From Alphaproteobacteria bacterium (GTDB taxonomy: Bacteria; Pseudomonadota; Alphaproteobacteria; SMXP01), in the NCBI GenBank assembly GCA_028280675.1, contig JANQLI010000129.1, forward strand, positions 1,833 to 65,832: DNA of 64,000 bases. The letters run 5' to 3'. Below, one piece after another: positions 36,900 to 59,965 of the stretch (positions are counted from its first letter, which is position 1; each line of letters begins with the position of its first letter). Made by a program: the position numbers and the translations under genes. The notes under the pieces were generated by a model. It was not told the DNA's origin. It worked only from the letters and a program-made list of their open reading frames with translations, and ran no database searches.

Positions 36900-37745
36900 A
36901 TGTCACTCACGCAAATCGGGTCCAATATCTGCTTCGGCGGGCAACAAAATCGCTATCAACATCAATCCAATGTACTCAACTGCGAAATGGTGTTTTCGGT
37001 CTATCTGCCTGCTGCAGCGGAGAACGGGCCATGCCCAATCCTTTATTGGCTGTCCGGTCTCACATGCACCGATGAAAACTTTGTCACCAAGGCAGGCGCA
37101 CAGAAATATGCGGCTGAGCACGGGATCATCATTGTCGCCCCGGACACCAGTCCACGCGGTGAGGGGGTGCCGGATGATCCCGACGGGGCGTATGACTTTG
37201 GCCTCAGCGCTGGATTTTATGTGAATGCGACCGAAGAGCCATGGTCCGTGCATTACAACATGTATGATTACATCATCAAAGAACTGCCAACGCTGATCAA
37301 CGCCAATTTCCCTGTCGATGCTTCACGCGTCGGAATCTTTGGACATTCCATGGGCGGTCACGGCGCGCTGACTATCGCACTCAAGAATCCTGACATTTAT
37401 CAATCAGTATCGGCTTTCGCGCCGATTGTGGCGCCGCTCAGATGTCCTTGGGGGCAGAAAGCACTCAGCAATTATTTAGGCAGCGATCAATCCATATGGG
37501 CTGACTATGACACGACCGCATTGATAGCGCGCGGCGAAAACAAAATTCCGCTTTTTGTTGATCAAGGTCTTGCCGATCAATTTCTTGAAGAGCAATTAAA
37601 ACCGGAATTGCTTGAAGAAGCGTGTAAAGCCCATGACCACCCGCTCATCCTGCGCCGTCATGACGGCTATGATCATTCTTATTTTTTTGTCGCAAGCTTC
37701 ATGGAAGACCATATCCGCTATCACGCGGAACACTTGTCACGGTAA
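36900..37745 (+). CDS. fghA: S-formylglutathione hydrolase (esterase D)
   Basis: ...VFSVYLP...YWLSGLTCTDENF...GHSMGGHGAL... are the FghA/FrmB family motifs. Confidence 0.8.
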   Translation: MSLTQIGSNICFGGQQNRYQHQSNVLNCEMVFSVYLPAAAENGPCPILYWLSGLTCTDENFVTKAGAQKYAAEHGIIIVAPDTSPRGEGVPDDPDGAYDFGLSAGFYVNATEEPWSVHYNMYDYIIKELPTLINANFPVDASRVGIFGHSMGGHGALTIALKNPDIYQSVSAFAPIVAPLRCPWGQKALSNYLGSDQSIWADYDTTALIARGENKIPLFVDQGLADQFLEEQLKPELLEEACKAHDHPLILRRHDGYDHSYFFVASFMEDHIRYHAEHLSR

Positions 37746-38303
37746 ATCATAAGTAAAAGGCGAGTCGATTTCCGATAATCGGGGAAGTGTGGTGTCTTTT
37801 CCAGAAAGCTGCGGCCCATTTTCAGGTAATGGCCAGTCGATCGCGATGTCAGGATCATTCCAGATGATTCCGTGATCATTTTCAGGACTATAAAGGGCGG
37901 TCACTTTATAGAGGAAGGTGGTGTCTTCGGTTAACGTCACAAAACCATGGGCAAAGCCTTTCGGCACGAAGAGTTGCGCGCCATTCTCAGCGGTGAGTTC
38001 CGCACCGACATACTGTCCAAAAGTCGGCGAGCCATTGCGAATATCCACAGCCACGTCATAAACGGCACCTGTGACGACACGCACCAATTTATCTTGCGCA
38101 AAGGGCGGGGATTGAAAGTGCAACCCCCGCAACACGCCAACATCTTTGGAAAAAGAATGATTGTCTTGCACAAAGTCGAGATCAAAACCAGCTTCAGCAA
38201 AACGTTGTTGATTCCACGTCTCTGTAAAAAAGCCGCGATCATCGCCAAAGCGCTGTGGGGTGATCAGTTTGACGTCGGGTATAGCGAGCGTTTCAACCTG
38301 CAT
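37737..38303 (-). CDS. rfbC: dTDP-4-dehydrorhamnose 3,5-epimerase
   Basis: Cupin RmlC motifs (RGLHFQ...KLVRVV.GAVYDVAVDIR). Its 3' end overlaps the fghA 3' end by a few bases (convergent). Confidence 0.85.
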   Translation of the reverse strand: MQVETLAIPDVKLITPQRFGDDRGFFTETWNQQRFAEAGFDLDFVQDNHSFSKDVGVLRGLHFQSPPFAQDKLVRVVTGAVYDVAVDIRNGSPTFGQYVGAELTAENGAQLFVPKGFAHGFVTLTEDTTFLYKVTALYSPENDHGIIWNDPDIAIDWPLPENGPQLSGKDTTLPRLSEIDSPFTYDLP

Positions 38304-38308
38304 GGGCG

Positions 38309-39178
38309 TCACGAGTCCTTAACGAGATTCATGAGATATTGGCCATAGCCGCTTTTAATCAAGGGCTGTGCAAGGCGCTCAATATCTTCAGCACTCACCC
38401 AATCATTCTGATAAGCAATTTCTTCCAGACACGCGATGCGCAAGCCCTGGCGGCTTTCAATGGTACGAACGAAATCAGCAGCCTCTACAAGGCTTTCATG
38501 GGTGCCCGTATCAAACCAGCAATGCCCGCGCCCTAAGCGCTCAACACGCAAGTCCCCTTTCTCAAGATAAGCCGCGTTTACAGACGTAATCTCAAGTTCG
38601 CCGCGATGCGAAGGTTTAATGGCCGCCGCGATATCGACGACATCATTGTCATAAAAATAAAGTCCCGTCACAGCCCAATTCGATTTTGGGTTTTTGGGTT
38701 TCTCTTCAATATTAACAGCCCGAAAACGGTCATCGATCGTGACAACACCGAAGCGCTCTGGGTCATGGACATGATAACCAAAAATAGTCGCCCCCGCTTC
38801 CTGACTTGATGCGCGGCGCAAACTGTCGGTGAGGCCATGACCGTAAAATATATTGTCGCCAAGAACCAGGGCACAGGAATCGGTCCCGATGAAATCACGC
38901 CCAATAAGAAAGGCTTGCGCAAGCCCATCCGGGCTTGGCTGAATGGCATAAGAGAGATTAATGCCCCACTGTGCCCCATCACCAAGAAGCTGGGTAAAGA
39001 GAGGTTGGTCCTCAGGGGTCGTGATTAATAAAATATCACGGATCCCCGCCAGCATCAGCGTGCTGAGGGGATAGTAGATCATCGGTTTGTCGAAGACCGG
39101 GAGCAATTGTTTGGAAACAACTTTGGTCACGGGATAAAGCCGTGTGCCTGATCCTCCCGCCAGAATAATCCCTTTCAT
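38309..39178 (-). CDS. rfbA: Glucose-1-phosphate thymidylyltransferase
   Basis: [18 protein letters not shown] is the RmlA N-terminal signature. About 290 aa from that start. Confidence 0.9.
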
Positions 39179-39231
39179 CACGTCTGGTCCTTTCTTCAGT
39201 ATAAACCTAGATTCATCATGATCAAAGGCAC

Positions 39232-40278
39232 TTAACGTAAACCTAACCTCTCGCCACCATAGGCGTTCGACTTTGATTGTCCCCAAGAAGAATACTCAAG
39301 ATACCATTCCACCGTTTTGCGCAGACCTGTGTCAAATGTCTCTTCCGCCTGCCAGCCAAGGTCAATCTCAATTTTACTTGCGTCAATCGCATAACGGAAG
39401 TCGTGTCCTGGGCGATCAGTTACATAGGTGATCAGATCGCGATAAGATCCACCCGCGCGAGGACGTAATTCATCCAGTAAATCACATAAAGTATGAACGA
39501 CTTCGAGATTGGTCCGCTCATTGCGCCCACCGATATTATAGCTTTCGCCGATCACGCCTCGCTCCAAGGCGAGCACCAAACCTTTGGCATGATCGTCCAC
39601 ATAGAGCCAATCACGGATATTCTCGCCCTTGCCATAGACTGGCATTGTCTCCCCGGCGAGGGCCTTGAGAATCATCAACGGAATCAGTTTTTCCGGGAAC
39701 TGATAGGGGCCATAATTGTTCGAGCAGTTGGTCAGAACGACTGGCAAACCATAGGTTTCATGCCAAGCGCGCACCAAATGATCGGAAGAGGCTTTACTGG
39801 CCGAATAAGGCGAACGCGGGTCATAGGGAGTTGTCTCGGTGAACACCCCTTCCGTGTCTAAGCTGCCAAACACTTCGTCTGTGGAGATATGATGAAACCG
39901 GAAGCGGGCACGCGCCGCTTGTGGAAGATGCGTCCAATACGCCGTCGCAATGTCCAACAGAATTTGCGTTCCAACAATATTAGTTTGAATGAACTGCCCT
40001 GGACCATCAATAGACCGGTCCACATGGCTTTCCGCGGCTAAATGCATGATGGCATCGGGTTGATAGCTCTGAATCACACGAGATACTTCAGCGGCATCGC
40101 AAATATCCACTTTTTCAAAGCTATACCGCGGATGACCCTCCGCGCCGGGAATCGCCTCTAAATTGGCAGCATAGGTGAGCTTATCGAGGTTTATGACGCT
40201 ATGATCCGAGTTGGCCAGAAGATGTCGAATAACGGCAGACCCGATGAACCCTGCCCCGCCTGTCACCAAAATACGCAT
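39232..40278 (-). CDS. rfbB: dTDP-glucose 4,6-dehydratase
   Basis: [14 protein letters not shown] plus the YxxxK catalytic region. At 348 aa it matches RmlB. Confidence 0.9.
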
Positions 40279-40543: not shown

Positions 40544-42745
40544 GTGAAACAGTCAAATGAGATTGCCAATCGCACCCTAGGCGGCAAAGTCATCACAAAT
40601 CTTGTAAACATTTTCAGACTGGTTCTCCAGCATCCACGCCAGAGTTTGCAACGCGTGAACACGCACACGCTTAAAAGATTTGTTTATTTGCTGATAAAGC
40701 AACCTCATCTGCTACAGGACGTCACCTCACAATATTCCGGTGAATTTAACCGTGAGAAGGCCCCATCCGTCTACCATTTGAAAAAGTTTAGTCCCGAGGA
40801 ATTGGATACGCTTGATTGGAGTTTGCCAGACCCTAAGAATCCTGTCGTTAGCGTCATCATCCCAGTTTATAATCAACTCAATTATACCTTAAACTGCCTT
40901 CTCTCGATTATTGAGAATCCACCGCAATGCAGCTTTGAAGTGATTGTTACCGATGATTGTTCAACCGATAACACGGAAGACGTACTCAAACGGATTGAAA
41001 ACCTTACATATAGACGAAACCCTGAGAATCTTGGCTTTTTACGCTCGTGCAATGCAGCGGCTGAAAATGCCAAAGGTGACTATATCTTTTTCCTCAATAA
41101 TGACACCTTAGTGACGCCCGGATGGCTTGATGAACTCCTCAAGGTTTTTCAATCGCAGCCAGATACGGGCATTGTTGGCTCCAAATTGATTTTTCCCGAT
41201 GGATATGTACAAGAATGCGGCGGTATTGTTTGGAGTAATGGTTTAGGATGGAATTATGGGCGAGGGAGTGACGCTCGTCTCCCAGAATTTAATTATCTTA
41301 AAGAATGCGATTATGTTTCCGGTGCAGCGCTTATGATTGGAATATCTCTCTTTCGGGACCTTGGTGGATTTGATGAGCGCTATGCACCGGCATATTATGA
41401 AGACACCGATCTGGGTTTGGCAGTGCGTGACATTGGAAAAAAAGTGTACGTGCAACCGCTATCCACAATTGTCCATTTCGAAGGCGTTTCAAGTGGAACA
41501 GATGTGACAGCGGGCGTTAAGAAACATCAAATCGTCAATCATCAAAATTTTCGAAAAAAATGGGGGTCACGATTAAGGAGTGATCATCACAATGAACGCA
41601 CTGATATGTTTACTGCCCGTGACCGATCCAAAGATAAAACATGTGTTCTTGTAATTGATCATTATGTTCCACACTTTGACCAAGACGCTGGATCGCGATC
41701 AACATATCTTTATCTCAAAGCATTGGTTACTGCAGGATACAACGTTAAGTTTTTAGGCGACAATTTCGCGCAACATGAACCCTACACAACAGAACTGCAG
41801 CAATTAGGAATTGAAGTTCTGTATGGAAATTATTATCAAAAATATTGGCGCGACTGGTTAACTCAAAACGCACAGCATATTGATGTCGTCTACATACATC
41901 GCCCGCATATAGCCAAAAAATATATCGATTTTATACGCGCTAAAAAACAAAAAATAAAAATTATTTATTTCGGTCACGATCTCCATTATCTCCGTCTTGA
42001 AAGAGAGGCTGTAATATCTTCTAAGCCATCACTCAAAAAGAAAATTGAAAAACAACGCAACGAAGAGTTTCAGATATTTACAAAGGCCGATCTCGTTTAC
42101 TATCCCTCGCAGGCTGAAATAGATGAAATCACAAAACACAATCCTGATTTAAACACCCGCGCCATTCCACTTTATGTTTTAAGTAACGAAGAAACTCTCC
42201 CTTATTCACATGTGGATAGAGAAGGTATATTATTCGTCGGTGGGTTTAATCACCCTCCAAATCTTGATGGAATATTATGGTTTATCGAGGAAATATTTCC
42301 ACGTATTCAAAAAGATATTCCTGATATTCAGTTGCACATCGTCGGCTCCAATATGCCCGACGAACTCTTGCGTCAAGGAAACAATTTCATCCACGCGCAT
42401 GGTTATCTGACGGAAGGGGACTTAGAGAGTTTATACCGACAGATACGCCTCTGCATCGCACCATTGCGTTACGGCGCGGGGGTCAAAGGAAAAATATTAG
42501 AATCTATGAAATATGGCATTCCTGTTGTAACAACGGAAACTGGCGCCGAAGGGATACCAAACGCTGCCTCATGCCTCGATATTCAAGATGATGCGGAAGA
42601 CTTTGCAATGAGTGTGGTAGATTTGTATAAAAACGAAAATAAATGCCGGGAACTCATAACAAGTGCGCAAAAGATAATTGAAGAATATTTTAGCGAAGAT
42701 GCTGTAATGAAAGTGATCAAACGTGACTTCACACCTTTTAAATAA
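40544..42745 (+). CDS. Two-domain glycosyltransferase: N-terminal GT2 (GT-A) fused to a C-terminal GT4-like (GT-B) domain
   Basis: GT2 signature (VSVIIPVYN...VTDDCSTDNT...DXD). The C-terminal domain carries a glycos_transf_1 motif (PLRYGAGVKGKILESMKYGIPVV) and is paralogous to the C-terminus of the 45233-47995 product. Confidence 0.7.
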   Translation: MKQSNEIANRTLGGKVITNLVNIFRLVLQHPRQSLQRVNTHTLKRFVYLLIKQPHLLQDVTSQYSGEFNREKAPSVYHLKKFSPEELDTLDWSLPDPKNPVVSVIIPVYNQLNYTLNCLLSIIENPPQCSFEVIVTDDCSTDNTEDVLKRIENLTYRRNPENLGFLRSCNAAAENAKGDYIFFLNNDTLVTPGWLDELLKVFQSQPDTGIVGSKLIFPDGYVQECGGIVWSNGLGWNYGRGSDARLPEFNYLKECDYVSGAALMIGISLFRDLGGFDERYAPAYYEDTDLGLAVRDIGKKVYVQPLSTIVHFEGVSSGTDVTAGVKKHQIVNHQNFRKKWGSRLRSDHHNERTDMFTARDRSKDKTCVLVIDHYVPHFDQDAGSRSTYLYLKALVTAGYNVKFLGDNFAQHEPYTTELQQLGIEVLYGNYYQKYWRDWLTQNAQHIDVVYIHRPHIAKKYIDFIRAKKQKIKIIYFGHDLHYLRLEREAVISSKPSLKKKIEKQRNEEFQIFTKADLVYYPSQAEIDEITKHNPDLNTRAIPLYVLSNEETLPYSHVDREGILFVGGFNHPPNLDGILWFIEEIFPRIQKDIPDIQLHIVGSNMPDELLRQGNNFIHAHGYLTEGDLESLYRQIRLCIAPLRYGAGVKGKILESMKYGIPVVTTETGAEGIPNAASCLDIQDDAEDFAMSVVDLYKNENKCRELITSAQKIIEEYFSEDAVMKVIKRDFTPFK

Positions 42746-44065: not shown

Positions 44066-44141
44066 AAAGACAATTTAGAGCTCAAGCAATCAATTATAAA
44101 TATAAACAACAGATTGATATCTTACCCCTTGGAAGACAAAG

Positions 44142-45236
44142 ATGGCAAAACCAGTACTAGTTCTTCATATCGGTCTACCAAAAACAGGCTCCACAGCAGC
44201 CCAAGAGTTTCTCTATGCCAATAGAGAATTACTCAAGACGCAGAAAATTTATTATCCCAACACAGGTATTATTGATGGAGCGCATCATCTATTAGCTACA
44301 TCGCTTTTAAAGCGCGTCCCCCCCGCTTTGCAAAAATTACCTCGACCTAACTCGCAAGCGATTTATCGAGATCTCATAAATAATTTTAATCACTCTGGAT
44401 GTAATACAATGCTCCTTAGTACAGAGTATTTTTCATTATTTGGTTTTCCATATCAGAAACATGGCCGAGAATTTATTGCAGATTTTTTTCGTGATTTCGA
44501 CATACGCATCCTCGCCTATCTTCGCCATCAATTACCCCGCTATGAATCTACGTACAGCCAAGAGGTGCGAAACGCAAAACTATCCCAACCTGTGTACCAC
44601 CAAGAATTTTTTCAGGATTTTATATCGCGAAAGGGAAATTACTACACATTTCTAATTGACCAGTGGGCTGAAACATTTGGAAAGTCAGGACTTATAATCA
44701 GGCCTTTTGTACGATCTCTTTTGCACAAGCGGAATATAATATATGATGTACTAGACCAAATTAACGCACCCTTAGATGCCACATGGAAATTTCCAATGCA
44801 CGAAGCTAATCAGGCTCTTTCGTATTATCGTATTGATCTCCTCAACAAACTTACTACCCTGTCACTTCCTAGAGATGTTAAAGACTCATCTTATGATGCA
44901 ATATCATCACTTCCGCTTCTTGACTGTGAGCGCGTCAAAACAACCATACTGTCTGACAAAGAGCGGGCCCTTTTGATCACACAATTTGAAGAAGATAATC
45001 AGAAACTAAATTTAAAGTATAAAGATGCTCTCAAAGGCCTTACGCTTGATGCACAACAGTTAGATAAAACACCAAAATACCATGAAGGCCTTGATCATAT
45101 TTTTCTCCATCAATTTGCAGATAAATTCTCCGATAAGCATAATGATCTAGGACGAGAGTTAAGTACATTAATCCTCTCACAATGCAAGCAAGACGATATG
45201 TTAAAATCATTTGCTGATCAGCTCAATAAACTATGA
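44142..45236 (+). CDS. P-loop sulfotransferase-like protein
   Basis: N-terminal LVLHIGLPKTGSTAAQ resembles the sulfotransferase 5'-PSB P-loop. It is paralogous to the N-domain of the next gene. A sulfotransferase function is inferred only. Confidence 0.35.
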   Translation: MAKPVLVLHIGLPKTGSTAAQEFLYANRELLKTQKIYYPNTGIIDGAHHLLATSLLKRVPPALQKLPRPNSQAIYRDLINNFNHSGCNTMLLSTEYFSLFGFPYQKHGREFIADFFRDFDIRILAYLRHQLPRYESTYSQEVRNAKLSQPVYHQEFFQDFISRKGNYYTFLIDQWAETFGKSGLIIRPFVRSLLHKRNIIYDVLDQINAPLDATWKFPMHEANQALSYYRIDLLNKLTTLSLPRDVKDSSYDAISSLPLLDCERVKTTILSDKERALLITQFEEDNQKLNLKYKDALKGLTLDAQQLDKTPKYHEGLDHIFLHQFADKFSDKHNDLGRELSTLILSQCKQDDMLKSFADQLNKL

Positions 45237-47995
45237 AGAAGATTATAATCCATATCGGCATTCATCGGACAGCCACCACAGCTCTTCAGTCATTTTTACG
45301 TGAGAATAAGCTCCTGCTGGAGGATCATTCTATTAGGATTCCAGAGACTGGTTATGCATTGGGGTCATCTCATCAATTGCCTTGGTGTTTTCTTCGAGAT
45401 CTTCCTACTCATTACCCAGTATCACCTTTATCGCACAGAGAGTTATTTAATAACTTAATTGAAGAAATTGATTCCCGGCCCGAAAGCATTTTTATCCTTT
45501 CAAGTGAAGACTTCTGCTTAATTGACAAAGATTCAGCAAAGGAAAATCCAAGCCTTGATGAAATTGCAAACTATTTAAAGAAGTATGATGTGACCATCAT
45601 CGCTTATCTTCGTAATCAAGTTGAATTCATATCTTCCTATTTAAATCAGGCTATTAAAGCTTACGACACCCGAATCGTCCCCCAAACAGCCGAATCCGTA
45701 AACTCCTATTTCAAGAATGTATTGGATTATGAAAAACTTCTAGAGCGCTGGGGTAAAGCTTTTGGAGAAGACAATCTTTGTGTTCGTTCATTTCATCTTG
45801 CAGTGAGCGAAGACGGTATTATTGCTGACTTCCTCTCACAAGTTGGTATTGAGATGGAGTTAAAGACCTCAACTCCAACAAATCAGTCTCTTGATGAGAA
45901 AACGTTGTCTTTTCGCAAATACCTAAATACGCTTCCCGTTGAAACTGTTACATTAGCGGATTTAGAGAGCGGTCTAAACGCACTATCACGTGATACTCCT
46001 GCTGCATCTTTAGATCGGGCAACAGCTAAAAAATATCAGGGCGTATATACAGAAATAAATCAAAGAGTAGCAGCATCTTTTTCACCACTGAACCCACTTA
46101 ACTTCTTGCCTCCCATCAACGATCAGTTATACCCTGAGATATTAACTGATAGACATATATCTCTTGATGATAAACTTAACTTATCAAATGCGTTATTTGC
46201 TCAGCTCTCTAGTGATCACCTCAATACAATAACTAGAATTGAACAAGATTTTGTTCTGTTGAGAGAAGATCTGCATGGTATACGCGAGGATACACATCAA
46301 GCCCGTGATGATTTCCATATGCAGAGGGACGATTTTCAACTGCAAAGGAAAGAATTCGTTAAACAGGAGGAGGAATACAATAAGCTAAAACAGAAGCTAT
46401 TAGAAATAAGAGGTGAGCTCAATGAATTGAAAGAGTCCCACTCTTACCAAGTTCATGCCCTCCAAGATAATCTGTTGCAATCAGAACATATTCACACTGA
46501 TATGGCTATGCAGAGCTTTCGCCGCGCGCGCAGAGCTATTTCACCCCGCAGACGGCTGAATGAAACCTTCGGAAAGGATGAACGCATTATTCAATTTTCG
46601 CCTCTTTTTGATGAATCGTATTACCGAGACCTATATTTAAAGGACTCAACAACCAGACTAACAGCAGCCAAACACTATTTAAAAATTGGCGCTGCAGCAG
46701 GGTTTAATCCATCAGCTCACTTTAATACGATTGAGTATATTCGCTCTCATGCGCATGTTGCATTAGCGGGCATCAACCCGATCGTCCACGCTGAGCAAAC
46801 CAGATATACATTACCCGAGAGCAAAACTAATGTTACCGCACATAAAAAACAGCATATCGTGATCATTGACCATGAGATTCCAAAGTTCGACCAGAACGCA
46901 GGTGCGCGGCATACACATCATTATATCAAGTTATTTCTTGAACTCGACTATGACGTCACTTTCCTTCCGTTTTGCGATGATCCAGTTGATTTGAGTCTTC
47001 TGCAATCTATACGACAAATGGGGGTCACTGTTTTAACGCACGAAGAAGAAAACAAAATATGGACGCCGGCAGCCTGGCATGGCTGGTTAGAGACAAACCA
47101 GAGCCAAATCAATTTGGTATATATTCACCGCCCACATGTTGCCGAACACTATATGAGTTATTGCAAGAATATACTTGAGCTTCCTGTCTGGTATATGTGT
47201 CATGATCTCCATTATCTACGTCTTCAAAGAGAGGCAGCTATTAAAGGCAAAGACAGTGAACAAGCACTCATTATGAAAGAAAAAGAACGCCACTTTTTTG
47301 CCATGGCAGATCTCAATTTTACACCAAGCCGAGAGGAGGAACGCTTGGTGAGAGAAGAATTCGGCATCACGTCGATTAAGACTCTACCATTATATCTGTA
47401 TGATGATCAAAGTAAGTCCAGTTCAATAGCAGAGAGAAGCGAGCGTATTCTTTTTGTCGGTAGCTTTCAACATCAACCGAACATAGACGGTTTACGCTGG
47501 TTTATTGAACACATATACCCGAAGATAAAAACCAAAACGCCCAACATCTTGATTGATATTGTAGGAAAAAATCCACCTTCTGACTTTACATCGCTAGAGG
47601 ACAGCCAACTTATTTTCCATGGTTATGTGGGTGATGAAGAGCTGGAGTTATTATATGCACAGGTCAAAGTTGTCGTGATGCCATTACGGTATGGGGCAGG
47701 CGTCAAAGGCAAAGTGCTTGAGGCAATGCGCCACGGTGTGCCATTTGTGGCTACATCATGCGCCTTAGAGGGTATTCCAGAACTTGCCGGAATAATTCCC
47801 GCTACCGATGATGACATTAGCTTCGCCAATGCTGTTTTAACAATGCTCACAAAAAATGAGCACGATTTGAAAATTTTGACAGACCAATTCGCTGAAATCA
47901 TTCAGACATTTTATTCTTTGCGGGCTGGGAAAAGCTTGATGGCACCGCTCCTTGAGGAATATTTATTACCCCAATCGGAGCGGACAAATCAATGA
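45233..47995 (+). CDS. Three-part protein: sulfotransferase-like P-loop domain + long coiled coil + GT4 glycosyltransferase domain
   Basis: N-terminus IIIHIGIHRTATTALQ is paralogous to the 44142 product. The central part is heptad-rich (EQDFVLLREDLHGIREDTHQARDDFHMQRDDFQLQRKEFVKQEEEYNKLKQKLLEIRGELNELK). The C-terminus has a GT-B fold (PLRYGAGVKGKVLEAMRHGVPFV) and is paralogous to the C-terminus of the 40544 product. Confidence 0.5.
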   Translation: MKKIIIHIGIHRTATTALQSFLRENKLLLEDHSIRIPETGYALGSSHQLPWCFLRDLPTHYPVSPLSHRELFNNLIEEIDSRPESIFILSSEDFCLIDKDSAKENPSLDEIANYLKKYDVTIIAYLRNQVEFISSYLNQAIKAYDTRIVPQTAESVNSYFKNVLDYEKLLERWGKAFGEDNLCVRSFHLAVSEDGIIADFLSQVGIEMELKTSTPTNQSLDEKTLSFRKYLNTLPVETVTLADLESGLNALSRDTPAASLDRATAKKYQGVYTEINQRVAASFSPLNPLNFLPPINDQLYPEILTDRHISLDDKLNLSNALFAQLSSDHLNTITRIEQDFVLLREDLHGIREDTHQARDDFHMQRDDFQLQRKEFVKQEEEYNKLKQKLLEIRGELNELKESHSYQVHALQDNLLQSEHIHTDMAMQSFRRARRAISPRRRLNETFGKDERIIQFSPLFDESYYRDLYLKDSTTRLTAAKHYLKIGAAAGFNPSAHFNTIEYIRSHAHVALAGINPIVHAEQTRYTLPESKTNVTAHKKQHIVIIDHEIPKFDQNAGARHTHHYIKLFLELDYDVTFLPFCDDPVDLSLLQSIRQMGVTVLTHEEENKIWTPAAWHGWLETNQSQINLVYIHRPHVAEHYMSYCKNILELPVWYMCHDLHYLRLQREAAIKGKDSEQALIMKEKERHFFAMADLNFTPSREEERLVREEFGITSIKTLPLYLYDDQSKSSSIAERSERILFVGSFQHQPNIDGLRWFIEHIYPKIKTKTPNILIDIVGKNPPSDFTSLEDSQLIFHGYVGDEELELLYAQVKVVVMPLRYGAGVKGKVLEAMRHGVPFVATSCALEGIPELAGIIPATDDDISFANAVLTMLTKNEHDLKILTDQFAEIIQTFYSLRAGKSLMAPLLEEYLLPQSERTNQ

Positions 47996-48066
47996 ACGCG
48001 GCTGTTTACATTTCACACGCGCCCTACCAAGGAAAATCTGGCTAACTTTTTCCTAGGGAGCAATTC

Positions 48067-49968
48067 GTGCCGAATTACTATCGCCCAGAAATTGATGGTC
48101 TCCGCGCAATAGCGGTTGTGAGCGTTATTCTATTTCATGCGGAGTTTACGTTATCTGGGACAACCCTCTTTCAGGGAGGATACATCGGAGTTGATGTGTT
48201 TTTTGTGATCTCCGGTTATCTCATCACACTCATCATCATCAGAGAATTGGCACAAGATAAATTTAGCCTAAAGAATTTTTATGAACGGCGCGCTCGGCGT
48301 ATTATGCCAATATTACTAACCGTGACGTTGTTAACAACATTGGCAGCGCTCTTTCTCATGCCTCCCCAACCGCTGATGTCGTTTTCTTTGTCAGCGATCA
48401 CGACATTGTTTTTTAGCTCAAACATTTACTTCTTTTTAGACAGCAATTATTGGGCGGAGCCAAGCGCGCTGAAGCCACTACTACACACCTGGAGCTTAGC
48501 GGTTGAGGAACAATTTTATATTTTGTATCCGTTTATGTTAATAGCACTGTGGCGATACTTTAAGAATCACCTTGTTTTTATTCTTGGTCTCATAACAATC
48601 ACGTCTTTAGGTCTCGCACAATACGGAAGCTCTCAATTTATAGAAGCGAATTTCTATCTCCTTCCGTCACGGGGCTGGGAATTGATGGCTGGTGCTATCC
48701 TTGCTCACATCGAGTTAACATCTGGGCGTAAAATTGAGAGTCGATTTACTAAGGCCTTACCCATTCTGGGATTCGTTTTCATTATTTGTGCGGTTTTGCT
48801 ATTTGACGAGACAACTCCACACCCTTCCTTAGTTACACTTCTCCCAGTCGCAGGAACCATGCTGCTTATTTGGTTCTCGCAAGAAGGAGATTACATAACT
48901 TGGCTCTTAAGTCGTCAAATATGCGTCCGCATCGGCCTTCTTTCATATTCACTCTATATGTGGCATTTCCCACTTTTTGCTTTTTCAAGACTCACACAAG
49001 CATCAGAATCAAATTTAGATAAATTTCTGATCATTATGTTGACAACAATTCTGTCTTCTATCGGCTATATAGCGATTGAAAGAAGGGCGCGCATTCAAAA
49101 TAAGCTGTCCACGAAGCTATTCCTGATGATCGTCGTCACGGCATCACTTATTATTCTCATATTAAATGTTTATGCACTCCAGGCCAGAGGATCATTAACG
49201 GGCTCAGAAGAAGATGAAATCGCATTCGGTCCATATGACTACGCCAATGATTACCTAGCGCATACATGCTTTCTTGAGCCAGATGATATGTCTGAACCGC
49301 TTCCCTTTAAAAGGTGCACTGCAAAAGGGAAAACTGACGGCCCCACAATGCTTTTATGGGGTGATAGTCACGCTGCCCACCTCATACCCGGACTTATTGA
49401 GAATTTTGCCGATACATATAATATCATTATTCGGACATCCTCAGACTGTAGACCTATTTTAAATCGCAATCCAAAACACAGGCCCTTCTGCAAGAACATC
49501 AATGATAATATTTTTCAATATGTCAAAGAGACAAGGCCATCGCATGTGTTAATAGCGGGCAGATGGCAAAGGGAACAATATACTTTAACAGTCTCACTTA
49601 TCAAAGAATTGAAACGAGCGGGTGTCAAATTTATATATGTTGTTGGTCCAGTGCCCCATTGGTCTAAAGGCTTGCCGATTCGGCTTTATCAACAGCTTGG
49701 CCCCCAGGAAATTCCGAATATATATTCCATCCCGCAATATTTGCTTGATGATAGGAATGAGCCCTATATCGCTATGGACCAAAAGATGCAGGAGTTTTTC
49801 AGTGAGTTGGACGTTACATATATATCACCCATATCTATACTATGCCGACCGGAAAAGGGCTGTCTTACCTATGCAGGAGACAAAGATAAAGCCCTCGTGC
49901 AGTGGGATTCATCTCATCTGACGCGTCATGGCTCCTCATACTTAGTTAGACGTTTTGAAATACGGTGA
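48067..49968 (+). CDS. Acyltransferase-3 (OafA/YrhL) family O-acyltransferase with C-terminal SGNH domain
   Basis: N-terminal motif EIDGLRAIAV...FFVISGYLIT, about 10 TM helices, and a C-terminal SGNH-like hydrolase region. Confidence 0.8.
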   Translation: MPNYYRPEIDGLRAIAVVSVILFHAEFTLSGTTLFQGGYIGVDVFFVISGYLITLIIIRELAQDKFSLKNFYERRARRIMPILLTVTLLTTLAALFLMPPQPLMSFSLSAITTLFFSSNIYFFLDSNYWAEPSALKPLLHTWSLAVEEQFYILYPFMLIALWRYFKNHLVFILGLITITSLGLAQYGSSQFIEANFYLLPSRGWELMAGAILAHIELTSGRKIESRFTKALPILGFVFIICAVLLFDETTPHPSLVTLLPVAGTMLLIWFSQEGDYITWLLSRQICVRIGLLSYSLYMWHFPLFAFSRLTQASESNLDKFLIIMLTTILSSIGYIAIERRARIQNKLSTKLFLMIVVTASLIILILNVYALQARGSLTGSEEDEIAFGPYDYANDYLAHTCFLEPDDMSEPLPFKRCTAKGKTDGPTMLLWGDSHAAHLIPGLIENFADTYNIIIRTSSDCRPILNRNPKHRPFCKNINDNIFQYVKETRPSHVLIAGRWQREQYTLTVSLIKELKRAGVKFIYVVGPVPHWSKGLPIRLYQQLGPQEIPNIYSIPQYLLDDRNEPYIAMDQKMQEFFSELDVTYISPISILCRPEKGCLTYAGDKDKALVQWDSSHLTRHGSSYLVRRFEIR

Positions 49969-50028
49969 TAAAGTGATTGAAAAATATGTATAGCTGAATG
50001 TTGAACATCTAAGTTTAGGGGAAAAGGG

Positions 50029-51324
50029 GTGCCGCTCTCTGTCAGAAGATCTTACCGTGCCGCCGCGAATGCAATTTCCCGAGGGGAGGGTTGGGGGACT
50101 CTCACACGCATCAAAAATGAACTTCAAATGTCACCCGCGATGGAAAAAAGTGGCGATCTCTTTCGCTCTCTCTACAACCATCGCAATATTGATTGCGCGG
50201 CTAACCTCCTGAGCACATCAAATGGGTCAAAGTTTTTTGATTACGAACTGAGCACCATGGTGCCGGCAGCATACATGCCCCGCGTGCATACGGCATCGCA
50301 TTCCACACTTCTGCCCACACGTGCGGTTTATCCAAATGATTGGCAATTTGACGGATACTTTGACCACATTGCTTACGATAATAAAGGCAATCCCATCCCA
50401 TCGGCCAATCACCTTATCTCGCGCTATAAAGGGTATTTAGACAATCCGGAAATGCAAAATAAAGACATCAAGTTAACCCCCCTAGGGGGCCCCCATTATC
50501 ATATGGGTTTCTTAATCACCCATTATGGCCACTTTATACTCGAGGTATTGACCCGCTATTGGCATGCTTTGCAAACGGGCGTCGATCCAAACACCATTTT
50601 TGTGTTTCATATATGGCAACGCGATATTGAGAATGCTTTGAATGACGCTCTTAAAAATCGCCTTTTTAAAGGTTATTGGGCGGACTATCTCAATGCCCTT
50701 GGCTTGTCTCAAGAAAACACGCTCTTTCTGACGCACCCAACATCATTTCACTCAATAACCCTGCCGCAATATGCGGTCAGCCTGTCCGCCTCCGACTGTT
50801 TTATCAGTGATGCAGCTCTTCCTGTTTGGCGTTTTTTAAATAGTGAAATGTCCGCTGCCTATTATACAAATAATCCAGAAAAAAACTTTGGCGATCGCGT
50901 TTACATTTCGCGTCGTAAGGTCGCCAATCCTAACCGCGGCAGAGTCTATAGCAATGAAGCTGAGATTGAGGATCTTTTTCGTTCAAAAGGGTTTTTCATT
51001 CTCTACCCTGAAGACCTCGAATCTGAATATGAAAAACAAGCCGTGCTCTCAAATGTGCGCTTTCTCGCAGGCGCACCTGGGTCGGGCCTGCTAAGTTCAG
51101 TCTTTATTCCGCATCAGGCTGATGTCTTGATGATCATCAGTGAACAAGCCTACAAAACCAATCCAGCCGTGATCCATCAAATAGCCATGAATACCCTGGT
51201 GGGACATCGCACACACGCATATTTCGAGCATGATCTCGCGATGGGATCGGAGCCCCAACAACCTCCGATAAACTTAACAAAACTTGAAAAGGCGCTTGAT
51301 AAGACTCTGTCTTCCTGCCTATAG
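50029..51324 (+). CDS. GT61/DUF563-family glycosyltransferase (paralog 1 of 3)
   Basis: YHMGFLITHYGHFILEVLTRYW and the C-terminal ...EAEIEDLFRSKGFFILYPEDLESEYEKQAVLSNVRFLAGAPGSGLLSSVF match DUF563 core motifs. Probable GTG start. Confidence 0.5.
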   Translation: MPLSVRRSYRAAANAISRGEGWGTLTRIKNELQMSPAMEKSGDLFRSLYNHRNIDCAANLLSTSNGSKFFDYELSTMVPAAYMPRVHTASHSTLLPTRAVYPNDWQFDGYFDHIAYDNKGNPIPSANHLISRYKGYLDNPEMQNKDIKLTPLGGPHYHMGFLITHYGHFILEVLTRYWHALQTGVDPNTIFVFHIWQRDIENALNDALKNRLFKGYWADYLNALGLSQENTLFLTHPTSFHSITLPQYAVSLSASDCFISDAALPVWRFLNSEMSAAYYTNNPEKNFGDRVYISRRKVANPNRGRVYSNEAEIEDLFRSKGFFILYPEDLESEYEKQAVLSNVRFLAGAPGSGLLSSVFIPHQADVLMIISEQAYKTNPAVIHQIAMNTLVGHRTHAYFEHDLAMGSEPQQPPINLTKLEKALDKTLSSCL

Positions 51325-51337
51325 AGTTTGATAAACA

Positions 51338-52564
51338 TTGCCGAAAGACGAAGGCTATAAATTTGTAATGGCCCCTTATATTCCAAAAACGCAATACAAG
51401 GATTTATTTCGGCGTCTCTATACCCACGAAGACCTTGCCAGTTTTGAAACGTTAACACATCACCTCTCTGAACCGCCAGACTACTACAAACACAGTCTTG
51501 CTTTTTCTCCAGCAAATTTCACCCCAACCTCCATCGACGTTGATGGCGCTTATTTATTTCCATTTGTGGCACCACAACAAGTTCCCCAGTCACGCATTAT
51601 TGAACATGTTGTTTATGATCATGAACTCAATCCTGTGACAATCGCAAATCACATCAAGGCCTTTTATAATGGATATGAGGACCATCCAGATTTACCTGCC
51701 TACCCCTTCTCAAAGAACACCATACTCGAGCATATCCCCGGCACATCATACTATATGGGTCTTCTGCTTCCTCATTTTGGGCATTTCATTCTGGAAGTCA
51801 TCACGCGGCTTTGGTGTCGTTTGAAGGATGAAGAAAAAAAACTGTCGAAATTTATTTTTCATATTGTTGGTCAGCGCGATGAAGAGGGAATTAAGCAAAA
51901 TCTTTTTGGCGGTTATTGGAAAGCTTACTTTGATGCTTTCGGCATCACACCAGATAATTTTGTAGTCGCCAACCGTCCCCTTCACTGTGATAATTTAATT
52001 GTTCCACAATGCGCACTGAGTATTGGCGTTTACCGTGCACCCGATTGTTTCCTTTCAAAAGATGCTGTGCGTGTTTGGCGCGAAACGCATCGGCGTATCA
52101 TCGACTCTACACCACACACAGATCAAAATAGCGCCTATGAGAGGATCTATATCTCACGGAGAAAGGTTGAGAATCCGTTCCAAGGGCGATTATTAGAGAA
52201 TGAAGAAGACATAGAGCAGCTATTGATGAAAAAAGGATTTCACATCCTCTACCCCGAAGACATTAAGTCGGAAGCTGAAAAACATGTCATTCTCTCACAA
52301 TGCCGAACACTAACAGCTCTTTCAGGATCAGGCCTGATGAACAGTGTTTTCTTACCAAAAGGCAGTAAAGTTCTACAGATTATCAGTGATCAAATAAATC
52401 GCGGCTTGCCGGGACTTGAGCAACAAATCTCTATTGATACTCTCTGTGAACATCATTCATATGTTTACTACCAAGATGACTATGTGAGTGATACGAAGAA
52501 ATCAGCACGTATAGACCTTCGTCCCTTTGAAAGCGCAATTGATTCCTTTCTATATGACAAATAA
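51338..52564 (+). CDS. GT61/DUF563-family glycosyltransferase (paralog 2 of 3)
   Basis: HFGHFILEVITRLW ... GFHILYPEDIKSEAEKHVILSQCRTLTALSGSGLMNSVF. Confidence 0.5.
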   Translation: MPKDEGYKFVMAPYIPKTQYKDLFRRLYTHEDLASFETLTHHLSEPPDYYKHSLAFSPANFTPTSIDVDGAYLFPFVAPQQVPQSRIIEHVVYDHELNPVTIANHIKAFYNGYEDHPDLPAYPFSKNTILEHIPGTSYYMGLLLPHFGHFILEVITRLWCRLKDEEKKLSKFIFHIVGQRDEEGIKQNLFGGYWKAYFDAFGITPDNFVVANRPLHCDNLIVPQCALSIGVYRAPDCFLSKDAVRVWRETHRRIIDSTPHTDQNSAYERIYISRRKVENPFQGRLLENEEDIEQLLMKKGFHILYPEDIKSEAEKHVILSQCRTLTALSGSGLMNSVFLPKGSKVLQIISDQINRGLPGLEQQISIDTLCEHHSYVYYQDDYVSDTKKSARIDLRPFESAIDSFLYDK

Positions 52565-53747
52565 TTTCATGTTTGATCTTTTTAAACGACAGAATAAAAC
52601 AACACACCTTGCAACCCTCGCGGATGTCGGGACGAATCTGACACAGTCAGACCATTACGCACACTACCTCAAGAGCATCTCGGTATCGGAATTTACGCCA
52701 AAGGCAAGCACGGAGAAAGACGCCCTCCTCTTGCCATTGCATGCACACTTACAAATACCTGCCTCACTGATGATGGAGCATGCGGTTTATGACAATGCGC
52801 TGAATCCCATTACCTATGCAACCCACATCAAACCCCTTTACCGCGGATTTAAACTACATCCCGATCTCCCTAAATATCCGGGCTATGACCTATCAGAATA
52901 TGAAGCTCTTCCTGGCCGATCATATTATGGAGGCATATTACTAGATCAATTCGGGCATTTTATTCTTGAGACTCTCACCCGCTTTTGGCGCGCGGTGGAA
53001 ACTGAAGAGCGCAAATTTGATCAGGTTCTGTTTCATGTCCTCAGTGATCGCAATACGATGCATATGCGCAAGCGTCTCTTTCGTGACTTTTGGAGTAATT
53101 ATTTTCATGCCCTTGGCATTACGGAAGACAACTTTATTTTTATCGAGAAACCCTTCATTGCGGAAGAGCTTATTATTCCACAATGCAGTGTCAGTATTGG
53201 CATGTTTAATCGAAGCAATTGCTATATCTCGGAGAAAGCACACGGTGTGTGGTCAATTTTAAACCAGCGCATGGCAGGAGAGTATAGACCAAGCGACACC
53301 TCAACGGCACGTCCTGAAAAAATATATATGTCACGCCGTAATGTAAATTATTCGTTCCGCACAGGACAAATTGAGAACGAGGCCGACATTGAACACCTCT
53401 TCCGATCACGTGGATTCCATATCATTCGCCCTGAAGAACTCAGCTCAGAAAATGAGAAACACTATCTTCTCTCTGAATGTAAGATTCTCGCAGGGCCAAT
53501 TGGATCAGGTATGCACAATAGTGTTTTCATGAAACCTGGTGGGCATATTCTCAGCATCATTAGCGAGCAAATGAATGAAGGTGTGTGTGCGCTGGAGCAT
53601 CTTCTTGCACTCGGGGCGTCTCTTGGTCACAACATGTATCAATATTACCAATGTGACCTTGACCCAGAGCAGGAAAGTAAGGATAGCGTAATTAATCTCA
53701 CGCAACTTTCACAGGCGCTTGATCACTTTTTAGAGCGCAGCACGTGA
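52554..53747 (+). CDS. GT61/DUF563-family glycosyltransferase (paralog 3 of 3)
   Basis: QFGHFILETLTRFW ... GFHIIRPEELSSENEKHYLLSECKILAGPIGSGMHNSVF. Start is uncertain (52527, 52554 or 52569). Confidence 0.5.
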   Translation: MTNNFMFDLFKRQNKTTHLATLADVGTNLTQSDHYAHYLKSISVSEFTPKASTEKDALLLPLHAHLQIPASLMMEHAVYDNALNPITYATHIKPLYRGFKLHPDLPKYPGYDLSEYEALPGRSYYGGILLDQFGHFILETLTRFWRAVETEERKFDQVLFHVLSDRNTMHMRKRLFRDFWSNYFHALGITEDNFIFIEKPFIAEELIIPQCSVSIGMFNRSNCYISEKAHGVWSILNQRMAGEYRPSDTSTARPEKIYMSRRNVNYSFRTGQIENEADIEHLFRSRGFHIIRPEELSSENEKHYLLSECKILAGPIGSGMHNSVFMKPGGHILSIISEQMNEGVCALEHLLALGASLGHNMYQYYQCDLDPEQESKDSVINLTQLSQALDHFLERST

Positions 53748-53757
53748 CCCTGGGCAC

Positions 53758-54810: not shown

Positions 54811-55827
54811 ATGGTGCCTGGAAAGACAATCCGCACAATGACACACACCTACACCATTCGCCTTGCTGGAACAGACACAGCCATTGCCTGTCCTGAGAGC
54901 GTGTCTGTGCTGAATGGATTTTTAAATCAAGATGTGCAGCTTGTGCATGGATGCAAGAATGGCCGCTGCAAGTCATGCAAGGCGACCCTTCTTGAAGGTC
55001 GCATTCAGAACGAAGACGGGGAAACAATCGACTCAGGCGAATTTCTTAGTTGTTCGTATATACCCCTCTCCGACCTCGTGATCGAAGCGGACTATTGCCC
55101 TGAACTCGCGGATATTCAAAGGCGCACATTGCCCTGTAAAGTGAATCAGGCCACGTATGTGGGCGACGATATTCTGATTCTCACCCTACGCACACCTCCC
55201 AATCAGCGCCTTGTTTACCTCCCGGGGCAATATCTTGATTTAACGTATCAAGGGGTCTGCCGGTCCTATTCCATCGCCAATTCCCCAAATGCAGACGGCA
55301 CAATCGAGCTGCATATTAAACGCTATTCTGGCGGTGAAATGAGCGCTCTCTTTTTTGACAAGCCGATCACCACGAACACGCTCATGTCCATGCGCGCGCC
55401 CCTTGGGACATTCTTCGTCAGAGATGGAGAGGCCCCTTTAGTTTTCTTAGCCACAGGAACAGGGTTGGCGCCCATCAAAGCTATGATTGAATCTCTCATA
55501 CACGAGGGCGACAAACGGCCCATCACACTTCTCTGGGGCTGCCGCGAGGAGGCAGATTTTTATGACAAGCGCCCCACTGTATGGGCCTCTCAATATGATC
55601 ACATAAAAGTCGAGCAGGTTCTCTCAAAGCGTCAAAGAACCACAGCAAAAAAACACTATGTGCAAGATCATCTGTTAACCATACATCCCGATTTAAGCGG
55701 ATTCGATGTTTACGCTTGCGGGTCCCTGACTATGATAGAAGACGCGGAAAGCCTATTATGCGAATATGGCCTGGATAAGCGCCGGTTTTTTTATGATGCC
55801 TTTGTGGCATCCCATGAGAAGGATTGA
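54811..55827 (+). CDS. ddhD: CDP-6-deoxy-delta-3,4-glucoseen reductase (E3; 2Fe-2S ferredoxin + FAD/NAD reductase)
   Basis: Plant-type ferredoxin Cys cluster (C..GRCKSC...C), RSYSIAN FAD-binding motif, GTGLAPI NAD-binding motif. A start at 54838 is possible. Confidence 0.65.
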   Translation: MVPGKTIRTMTHTYTIRLAGTDTAIACPESVSVLNGFLNQDVQLVHGCKNGRCKSCKATLLEGRIQNEDGETIDSGEFLSCSYIPLSDLVIEADYCPELADIQRRTLPCKVNQATYVGDDILILTLRTPPNQRLVYLPGQYLDLTYQGVCRSYSIANSPNADGTIELHIKRYSGGEMSALFFDKPITTNTLMSMRAPLGTFFVRDGEAPLVFLATGTGLAPIKAMIESLIHEGDKRPITLLWGCREEADFYDKRPTVWASQYDHIKVEQVLSKRQRTTAKKHYVQDHLLTIHPDLSGFDVYACGSLTMIEDAESLLCEYGLDKRRFFYDAFVASHEKD

Positions 55828-56606
55828 TCAGCATGAAAGCTGTCATTCTGGCTGGAGGATTGGGCACGCGCTTAAGCGAAGAAACAACCCTTAAGCCAAA
55901 ACCCATGATCGAGATTGGGGGAAAGCCCATTCTCTGGCACATTATGAAGATCTATTCTCATCACGGCATCAATGATTTCATTATCTGCTGTGGCTACAAA
56001 GGCTATGTGATCAAAGAATACTTTGCGAATTATTTTTTACACACCTCAGATGTGACATTCTCCATGCAAGACAATAACATGGAGGTGCATCATAAACGCA
56101 CTGAGCCCTGGACTGTGACCTTAATCGATACCGGTGATTTAACCCCGACGGGGGGGCGTTTATTGAAGGTCAAAGAGCATCTTGAGAATGAATCGGCCTT
56201 TTGCTTTACCTATGGTGATGGCGTTGGCAGTATCGATATTCAGGCCAGTCTGTGCTTTCATAAAGAACATGGCAAAAATGCTACTGTCACAGCCACCTAT
56301 CCACCTGGACGCTTTGGCGCGCTGGAAATTCAAAACGGGAAGGTGGAGCGCTTTCAAGAAAAACCAGAAGGTGATGGGTCTATGATCAATGGCGGGTTCT
56401 TTGTCCTCTCACCGAAAGCACTCGATTTCATTGCCAATGAAGAGACGATTTGGGAGCAAGAGCCATTGGCGACGCTGGCTGAGAAGGGCGAATTGATGGC
56501 TTTTGAACATCATGGATTCTGGCAGCCCATGGATACTTTGCGCGATAAAAATCTGCTGGAAGATTTATGGGCGTCTGGCGATGCGCCGTGGAAGATGTGG
56601 GCATGA
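55824..56606 (+). CDS. ddhA: Glucose-1-phosphate cytidylyltransferase
   Basis: MKAVILAGGLGTRLSEET...KPMIEIGGKPILWHIM matches RfbF/DdhA. Confidence 0.85.
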   Translation: MISMKAVILAGGLGTRLSEETTLKPKPMIEIGGKPILWHIMKIYSHHGINDFIICCGYKGYVIKEYFANYFLHTSDVTFSMQDNNMEVHHKRTEPWTVTLIDTGDLTPTGGRLLKVKEHLENESAFCFTYGDGVGSIDIQASLCFHKEHGKNATVTATYPPGRFGALEIQNGKVERFQEKPEGDGSMINGGFFVLSPKALDFIANEETIWEQEPLATLAEKGELMAFEHHGFWQPMDTLRDKNLLEDLWASGDAPWKMWA

Positions 56607-57685: not shown

Positions 57686-57705
57686 TTCAGCTACATCTCA
57701 GCACC

Positions 57706-59019: not shown

Positions 59020-59031
59020 TCTATATGGCAA

Positions 59032-59922: not shown

Positions 59923-59965
59923 GAGGAGATGAAGATCCTGCTAAAACCAGGACAAAGGGGAGATT

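Follow-up and report, generated by a model that had tools for sequence, protein, structure and literature searches.

A single open reading frame in this glycan gene cluster encodes a 920-residue protein in which a sulfotransferase-like head is joined, through a heptad-patterned stalk and a conserved motif region, to a C-terminal GT4 glycosyltransferase domain (Table 1). Our preferred reading, to which we give a probability of about 0.42, is that the stalk-mounted head caps the end of a growing glycan with sulfate. The original prediction had proposed a three-part chain terminator or molecular ruler, and the three-part architecture was borne out in the window (the whole 64,000-nucleotide stretch of DNA analyzed), with both of the paralogies it had drawn well above chance. 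The functional interpretation fared less evenly. It is supported by the fold, the coil pattern, the GT4 domain, the layout, and the linkage of orthologs to wzm-wzt, but not by a local transporter, by a Wzt binding module, or by a close likeness to WbdD.

TABLE 1 Features of the fusion gene and of the surrounding cluster (residues refer to the 920-residue product)
Feature	Residues	Coordinates	Strand	Basis or remarks
Whole ORF: sulfotransferase-like head, heptad stalk, FDxxYY/HY motif region, GT4 domain	1-920	45233..47995	+	920 aa, ATG start
Sulfotransferase-fold domain	1-305	45233..46147	+	Class F of a large family without a Pfam model
5'-Phosphosulfate-binding (5'-PSB) loop HIGIHRTATT	7-16	45251..45280	+	Motif comparison
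SSEDF with conserved Glu92	90-94	45500..45514	+	S-[ST]-E kept in 15/15 sulfotransferase-like copies of cassette loci
3'-Phosphate-binding motif YLRNQVEFISS (R127-x7-S135)	125-135	45605..45637	+	Family alignment; aligns to 3rnl
Predicted coiled coil, 12 uninterrupted heptads, ~12 nm	321-404	46193..46444	+	Heptad score
FDxxYY...HYLxxGxxxGxNPS...NP motif region between stalk and GT4	455-520	46595..46792	+	Conserved in 5/6 fusion orthologs
GT4 (GT-B) glycosyltransferase domain	535-920	46835..47992	+	Pfam
rmlC, rmlA, rmlB (dTDP-rhamnose precursor genes)		37737..40278	-	Divergent from the GT operon
GT2-GT4 dual glycosyltransferase, 733 aa, no coil		40544..42745	+	Pfam; L086 ortholog E = 2e-210
GT8-like, DxD-containing cassette partner, 408 aa		42839..44065	+	56-60% identical in all ortholog loci
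Standalone sulfotransferase-like paralog, 364 aa, class B, canonical HIGLPKTGST		44142..45236	+	BLASTP, motifs
AT3-SGNH O-acyltransferase		48067..49968	+	Same operon as the fusion gene
Remainder of the same-strand operon: the O-acyltransferase of the preceding row, then three tandem GT61/DUF563 paralogs		48067..53747	+	
CDP-deoxyhexose pathway		54811..62199	+	Fer2/FAD reductase, cytidylyltransferase, 4,6-dehydratase, DegT/E1-like, epimerase/reductases, C-methyltransferase

The predicted sulfotransferase P-loop fold of the N-terminal domain was confirmed, and both PAPS-binding motifs are present. The 5'-PSB loop, of the K-x-G-T-T type, reads R12-T-A-T-T16 in the target and KTGST in the standalone paralog, with HIGxxKTGTT as the consensus of the wider family. 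Fusion orthologs follow the pattern HIGxH[K/R]T[G/A][T/S]T, with Arg12 in three of six and Ala14 in two of six, so these residues represent normal variation within the subfamily, and Arg is a conservative replacement for Lys. A search for the 3'-phosphate-binding motif, proposed earlier as a check, recovered R127-x7-S135. Across an alignment of 50 sequences, R127 is invariant and S135 is at least 90% conserved; both residues are retained in all three paralog classes, the exception being a Ser-to-Ala change in L084. Glu92, which is invariant and follows strand 3, is a candidate catalytic base by analogy with heparan-sulfate sulfotransferases, which use a glutamate base. Identity of the head to heparan-sulfate 3-O-sulfotransferases, the sulfotransferase domain of NDST1, and the bacterial protein 3rnl is only 10 to 16%, and the target differs from these enzymes in having Arg in place of the P-loop Lys and an additional C-terminal helical region of ~70 residues. 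We infer that the head acts as a carbohydrate sulfotransferase with PAPS as its donor.

The head belongs to a sulfotransferase-fold family of more than 16,000 clusters at 50% identity that is modeled by neither Pfam nor NCBIfam. No sulfotransferase model in either collection matched the target, and Sulfotransfer_1 weakly matches only 22 of 50 family members. Most members form tandem arrays of two to four domains without coils. The predicted paralogy with the product of the upstream gene was recovered by BLASTP with residues 1 to 330 (26% identity over 243 aa, E = 1e-21). A weak Sulfotransfer_3 match in another ORF of the window (53758-54645, minus strand) proved unrelated to the target head and has no PDB relative.

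The central segment, which had been expected to form a coiled coil, carries one unbroken heptad register over 84 residues (z = 5.3, with none of 300 shuffles of the same protein reaching it), as measured with a home-made scorer that is not a validated predictor. The a positions are I, F, L, T, F, F, F, Y, L, L, H, and L, and the d positions are I, L, I, A, Q, Q, Q, L, I, and L. Only long single-register windows were significant; a 28-residue window was not. The linker as a whole (residues 321 to 436) is 34% charged and free of proline, and a single-sequence AF2 model of low confidence (full-length pLDDT of 37) placed helices at 355-399 and 407-434. The stalk holds an insertion of ~40 aa that is absent from the orthologs, about half of which show a short or weak heptad signal; in P0016, P0033, and P0051 it is not significant. 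No transmembrane segment was found in the target (KD19 maximum of 1.24).

The GT4 domain carries the invariant motifs DHE[IL]P, WYMCHDLH, and PLR[YF]GAGVKGK. Pfam models matched both of its Rossmann-like halves (Glyco_trans_1_4 at 738-873, E = 9e-26; Glycos_transf_1, E = 4e-10; Glyco_transf_4 at 558-715, with a score at the cut-off), and there were weak profile matches to PimA and PimB'. As predicted, the domain is paralogous to the C-terminal half of the GT2-GT4 protein encoded at 40544-42745 (38% identity over 365 aa, E = 2e-78). The same GT4 subfamily supplies the C-terminal module of metagenomic methyltransferase-coil-GT2-GT4 proteins (L003, L020, and ~30 more), and in other proteins of this plan (P0002, P0003, L027, L059, and others) a Sulfotransfer_3 head replaces the methyltransferase. 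Both groups share the head-coil-GT order of the target, and their GT4 modules are homologous to it (tblastn E values from 1e-57 to 1e-71). They differ from the target in that their chain also contains a GT2 module. Furthermore, the Sulfotransfer_3 head represents a different sulfotransferase family from that of the target, and the methyltransferase-headed group, unlike the sulfotransferase-headed proteins, pairs with a Wzt that carries Wzt_C.

The stop codon of the standalone paralog and the start codon of the fusion gene overlap (ATGA, 45233-45236), and the two genes are probably translationally coupled. The GT2-GT4 protein, a candidate polymerase, has an ortholog in L086 that lies directly 3' of wzm-wzt. 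The CDP-deoxyhexose genes are also syntenic with L086, and rmlC, rmlA, and rmlB sit where L086 has wzm-wzt. The cluster is closed by a GT-C (PMT_2) gene, and scanning the operon for promoters and terminators gave no excess over shuffles. The target also occurs, as an exact copy, in a Logan assembly and on a 70,774-bp contig at NCBI. Word-indexed homolog searches with the full protein or a six-ortholog profile yielded nothing beyond the self-match and three relatives that have the GT part alone, those with the N-terminal domain returned no matches, and a scan of genome contigs returned one locus; relatives were recovered by an exhaustive HMMER search.

The terminator interpretation had called for an ABC transporter nearby, and this expectation failed locally: no Wzm, Wzt, Wzx, or Wzy is encoded in the window or in the 4.9 kb beyond it (~69 kb in total). 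The window cluster also lacks an initiating transferase, and the window has no PAPS-synthesis gene. No remnant of a degraded wzm, wzt, or cysC was detected by tblastn in the window and its right-hand extension. Five orthologs share the fusion architecture within a conserved cassette, in which a GT8-like gene and one or two standalone sulfotransferase-like genes precede the fusion. For four of these orthologs, wzm-wzt is adjacent or no more than 7 kb away, and the L002 locus carries cysC (APS kinase). The Wzt proteins that adjoin sulfotransferase-headed proteins (L002, L084, L086, L087, L005, and L006) are all 234 to 265 aa long, too short to include a carbohydrate-binding module. Those of the methyltransferase-headed relatives are 423 to 514 aa, and Wzt_C was confirmed in both that were scanned. 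Every characterized capped system has a Wzt binding module (PMC11231755).

Comparison with known terminators sharpened the original analogy. WbdD of Escherichia coli O9a and Klebsiella pneumoniae O3 resembles the target in that a coiled coil, acting as a molecular ruler, sets its head apart from the membrane-proximal end, and this head transfers a small group rather than a sugar (PMC3482155, PMC11231755). However, WbdD has kinase and methyltransferase heads, a C-terminal amphipathic membrane anchor, and a Wzt with a binding module. It also recruits a separate polymerase, WbdA, and has no GT domain of its own, which makes WbbB (K. pneumoniae O12 and Raoultella terrigena) and ORF6 of K. pneumoniae O7 the closer analogues. 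WbbB is a single-protein polymerase-terminator acting in cytoplasmic assembly for ABC-transporter export (PMC11231755), and like the target it places an N-terminal modifying module, an extended coiled coil, and C-terminal GT module(s) in one polypeptide. The likeness is one of layout. In WbbB the head is a GT99 beta-Kdo transferase, two polymerase GTs are present, and the Wzt of the system has a binding module, whereas the target has a single GT4, with the GT2-GT4 pair in a separate protein, and its relatives have a short Wzt. ORF6 combines a methyltransferase-kinase, a coiled coil, and two GT2 modules, alongside a standalone GT; unlike the target, it uses GT2 modules, makes a methylphosphate cap, and depends on a Wzt binding module for export.

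We propose that the target is an enzyme of head, stalk, and base, built on the plan of WbbB and ORF6, and that it belongs to an assembly line making a glycan at the cytoplasmic side of the membrane. The base would be the GT4 domain, related to the GT4 half of the neighboring candidate polymerase, and the modifying head lies at the end of the coil distal to it, an arrangement read from layout only. Once a polyprenol-linked chain had grown long enough to reach across the stalk (~84 residues, roughly 12 nm), the head would sulfate its non-reducing end. The terminal sulfate would block further extension, and stalk length would thereby influence chain length. Meanwhile, the standalone paralog may sulfate other positions, and in this genome the product would be exported by an unlinked ABC transporter. 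Against capping stand the contig itself, which bears no Wzm/Wzt, cysC, or other exporter, the module-less Wzt of linked loci, and a coil that is weak in about half of the orthologs.

Sulfation along the chain is a serious rival, close to terminal capping in probability, given the two to three sulfotransferase paralogs in each cassette locus and the coil-less arrays formed by the head family, which together point to sulfation at multiple sites. The target would then be bifunctional, both glycosyltransferase and sulfotransferase, and its product would be a heavily sulfated polysaccharide, with GT4 adding a sugar while the head and the standalone paralog(s) sulfate along the chain; the helical stalk would only oligomerize or scaffold, and a module-less ABC transporter coupled to synthesis would determine chain length, as it does in K. 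pneumoniae O2a. The paralogs fall into conserved classes with intact motifs, the coil is weak in half of the orthologs, and the module-less Wzt resembles those of uncapped systems in which extension and export are coupled (PMC11231755). There is also a precedent in the capsule of Cobetia marina KMM 1449, which has Rha2S in every repeat and is made by an ABC-transporter cluster with dTDP-Rha, PAPS, and sulfotransferase genes (PMC11766843), although export there is of the KpsMT type with KpsSC and no coiled-coil fusion is reported. What this explanation leaves unaccounted for is that exactly one sulfotransferase class is always stalk-mounted on a GT of the terminator-polymerase subfamily, and that a second sulfotransferase family independently occupies the methyltransferase-terminator position on long coils.

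It is also possible, though improbable, that the cluster acts outside an ABC-transporter pathway, in glycolipid synthesis, protein glycosylation, or with an unrecognized exporter, so that the likeness to terminators reflects shared module ancestry only. The missing transporter fits this idea, including the absence of wzm-wzt from the exact position it holds in syntenic L086, as does the closing GT-C gene. Of the 10 Sulfotransfer_3-headed loci for which DNA was available, eight also show no Wzt, three of them despite full 10-kb flanks, and two such loci have an MFS/Acatn-like permease. The linkage of most direct orthologs to wzm-wzt argues against it; O-antigen transporter genes are often unlinked, and essential parts must be encoded elsewhere in any case, since Wzx, Wzy, and an initiating transferase are likewise missing from the window cluster. 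Least probable is that the head is not an active sulfotransferase, being degenerate or regulatory or using another donor or acceptor, and that GT4 alone is catalytic. The lack of a model match and of a PAPS-synthesis gene in the window would agree with this, as would the departure of the target at two positions that the wider family conserves to 90% or more. However, a pseudo-enzyme reading of Lys12 to Arg and Gly14 to Ala was rejected because orthologs vary likewise and the other motif residues are kept. Glu92, Arg127, and Ser135 (five of six) persist over 30 to 44% identity, indicating purifying selection rather than decay; the fold match to sulfotransferases is specific, and cysC is linked in L002.

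Characterized terminators in ABC-transporter-dependent glycan synthesis add methyl, phosphomethyl, Kdo, or pyruvate. A sulfate cap, if true, would be a new termination chemistry; none was reported in the literature that we searched, though surveys of terminator chemistry outside that search may already predict sulfotransferase terminators. More tentatively still, and with some doubt, sulfotransferase-headed coiled-coil glycosyltransferases could constitute a second, undescribed branch of capped-glycan systems, in which sulfate ends the chain, stalk length sets its size, Wzt needs no carbohydrate-binding module, and two unrelated sulfotransferase families were recruited independently. The GT8-like partner might add a conserved cap sugar to carry this sulfate. 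Export without a Wzt module would uncouple termination from the export checkpoint of all studied systems, so that a coiled-coil head-stalk enzyme would work without the cap-reading step of the transporter. Should sulfation by the head prove to be in-chain, the protein would be a natural glycosyltransferase-sulfotransferase fusion, relevant to making sulfated heparin-like polysaccharides in bacteria. Either way, the analysis exposes a very large sulfotransferase-fold family and a testable, conserved four-gene cassette.

The target gene is a single open reading frame encoding 920 amino acids. Its ATG shares bases with the upstream gene's stop codon (ATGA), and it is part of a same-strand gene run extending from 40544 to 53747. 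In the glycosyltransferase region of the cluster (40001 to 54000), GC content was 0.38 to 0.45 versus approximately 0.50 to 0.53 in most of the window upstream, suggesting that this stretch was horizontally acquired. The original prediction had described a protein with three parts, and this architecture held. Pfam detected only the C-terminal GT4 domain (Glyco_trans_1_4, residues 738 to 873, E = 9e-26; Glyco_transf_4, residues 558 to 715). The proposed paralogies were also recovered: the C-terminal 420 residues matched the C-terminal half of the GT2-GT4 protein (38% identity, E = 2e-78), while residues 1 to 330 matched the upstream standalone product (26% identity, E = 1e-21). Between these domains, the expected charged, heptad-like segment was found as one unbroken register at residues 321 to 404, with a z score of 5.3 that was reached by none of 300 shuffles of the same protein. 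The scorer was home-made rather than a validated predictor; it was silent on the coil-less GT2-GT4 protein and gave strong signals for long relatives. The a positions are mainly Phe, Leu, and Tyr, with Gln at three central d positions, and the linker (residues 321 to 436) contains 34% charged residues and no proline. We predict a coiled coil here; an AF2 run on the full-length protein was of poor quality.

A word-indexed homolog search with the N-terminal domain returned no matches. Using exhaustive HMMER with a profile built from two paralogs, we recovered 16,440 cluster representatives (50% identity) at E ≤ 1e-3 and 6,650 at E ≤ 1e-10. This very large family lacks a Pfam or NCBIfam model of its own, and its members are either standalone proteins of about 330 amino acids or tandem arrays of two to four domains in proteins of up to 1,676 amino acids (P0010 to P0157 among them). 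Weak matches to Pfam Sulfotransfer_1 occurred in 22 of 50 members, and the only solved structure reached by a 50-sequence profile was that of the sulfotransferase 3rnl (E = 4e-4). An AF2 model of the head from the 50-sequence alignment was confident (pLDDT 84.4, pTM 0.85), and all 27 Foldseek matches at E ≤ 1e-3 were PAP(S)-binding sulfotransferase-family enzymes. The family consensus HIGxxKTGTT fits a 5'-PSB loop, and YLR127-x7-S135 fits the 3'-PB motif. We considered whether the P-loop of the target, HRTATT instead of the family's KTGTT, had decayed. We rejected this, since the five fusion orthologs vary alike (H[K/R]T[G/A][T/S]T) with all other positions conserved, which marks subfamily variation.

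The same architecture was found in five other cluster representatives (P0016, P0023, P0031, P0033, and P0051; 33 to 38% identity). Their loci share a cassette consisting of a GT8-like protein, one or two standalone sulfotransferase-like genes, and the fusion. The GT8-like partner is far better conserved (56 to 60% identity) than the fusion. Its features include an LDPD (DxD) motif and a conserved segment at the C-terminal end, RSRSWKITxPLRW; its only Pfam matches were below threshold, and no relative was found in the PDB. The sulfotransferase-like domains of the cassette fall into three orthologous classes: F (the fusion domain), B (standalone, including the window's 44142 gene), and A (standalone, without a member in the window). 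PAPS motifs and Glu92 are kept in all three, except for Ser135 to Ala in the related locus L084.

Other genes accompany the cassette. A CDP-deoxyhexose pathway encodes a Fer2/FAD reductase, cytidylyltransferase, 4,6-dehydratase, DegT/E1-like dehydrase, and epimerase/reductases. Because it includes a sugar C-methyltransferase, which the L086 pathway lacks, the predicted product is a branched or C-methylated dideoxyhexose. The 295-aa product between this pathway and the GT61 genes has only a weak C-terminal Sulfotransfer_3 match (E = 9e-4), with no relationship to the target head and no relative in the PDB; it could be a further sulfotransferase. The GT-C gene at the cluster end raises the possibility of a periplasmic step that modifies the glycan.

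Coordinates of features in the window and in related loci (L083 covers the 4.9 kb past the window's right edge)
Feature	Locus	Coordinates	Strand
Heparinase II/III-like and WbpM/PglF-type Polysacc_synt_2 dehydratase pair, ~20 kb upstream	window	17457-21373
GT2-GT4 protein	window	40544-42745
GT8-like partner	window	42839-44065
GT8-like partner	L002	7750-8907
GT8-like partner	L084	4237-5403
GT8-like partner	L086	3255-4478
GT8-like partner	L087	2779-3936
Standalone sulfotransferase-like, class B	window	44142-45236
Target fusion	window	45233-47995	+
GT61/DUF563 paralogs, three in tandem (431, 408, 406 aa)	window	50029-53747
295-aa ORF	window	53758-54645	-
CDP-deoxyhexose pathway	window	54811-62199
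Sugar C-methyltransferase	window	59966-61222
GT-C (PMT_2/ArnT-like) membrane glycosyltransferase	window	62220-63959	-
DUF2141 gene, following GT-C	L083	8014-8673
MFS/Acatn-like permease	L044	14658-16190
MFS/Acatn-like permease	L015	12029-13294

A neighboring wzm-wzt pair, as an ABC-dependent pathway had led us to seek, was not found. Neither Wzm/Wzt nor Wzx, Wzy, or cysC occurred in the window or the 4.9 kb past its right edge, and tblastn found no remnants of the missing genes. Four of the five orthologous loci do carry wzm-wzt, directly adjoining the fusion in L002 (which also encodes an APS kinase), L084, and L087, and 6 kb downstream in L086. In other respects L086 is syntenic with the window: the two share the GT61 genes, the CDP-deoxyhexose genes, and the GT2-GT4 protein (the L086 copy matches the window's at E = 2e-210), and rml genes in the window occupy the wzm-wzt position of L086.

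Among 81 further loci of the target's GT4 subfamily, 44 had a Wzt-like ATPase within 10 kb. Significant heptads N-terminal to the GT modules were present in 27 of 63 complete GT4-bearing proteins, and Wzt was nearby in 23 of these 27. The X-coil-GT2-GT4 proteins, from metagenomic loci (L003 to L082), have two head classes. Methyltransferase-type heads (32 proteins; Pfam-confirmed in L003 and L020) had Wzt nearby in 30 of 32 loci, nearly all of 423 to 514 aa, with Wzt_C confirmed in the two scanned; this combination is the canonical design of capped-glycan systems (Kelly et al. 2024, PMC11231755). GMHRSGTS P-loop heads (12 proteins; Sulfotransfer_3 in P0002, P0003, L027, and L059) sat on strong coils (z up to 9.4), and Wzt was nearby in 2 of 10 loci with DNA (234 and 249 aa). 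Both Sulfotransfer_3-headed loci that we detailed, L044 and L015, lack an ABC transporter and have a permease a few kilobases downstream of the large gene.

We place the probability that the target caps or measures the glycan chain at roughly 0.42. The WbdD-type reading is plausible and comparatively supported but not established. The analogy is closer to WbbB and K. pneumoniae O7 ORF6 than to WbdD, since the former two have their GT modules in the same chain. Against a simple terminator, the commonest fusion among 51 multi-domain family members is a coil-less tandem array of two to four sulfotransferase domains, with a long heptad stretch only in the target and P0031, and three of six fusion orthologs lack significant heptads. 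The contig's lack of transporter, Wzx, Wzy, and cysC genes also argues against a simple terminator, as does Wzt size: all six Wzt adjoining sulfotransferase-headed proteins are too short for the carbohydrate-binding module that is present in every characterised capped system (PMC11231755). Sulfate may instead be added within the chain, a role that we consider almost as probable and that has a documented precedent in the ABC-dependent capsule of Cobetia marina (PMC11766843). What probability remains is divided over two further readings, a head without activity and a pathway that does not use an ABC transporter.

A possible parallel to terminal capping comes from an ABC-type O-antigen cluster of Aeromonas salmonicida, in which a 216-aa ORF with a sulfotransferase domain, conserved but unexplained, lies between the genes for WbbB and a 438-aa Wzt; the cluster also has ArnT-like and AT3 genes (PMC4483657). 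Sulfate was not seen in its bulk O-antigen (PMC4483657), which would be compatible with terminal-only sulfate. In the literature searched (a 2019 census and a 2020 review lay outside it), no sulfotransferase was linked to a coiled-coil terminator. A binding-module Wzt pairs with a sulfotransferase head neither in the GMHRSGTS lineage nor in that of the target. Judged from sequence comparison, the strong coils of the Sulfotransfer_3-headed proteins, together with the target lineage, indicate that the terminator position is taken by a putative sulfotransferase in two independent protein lineages.
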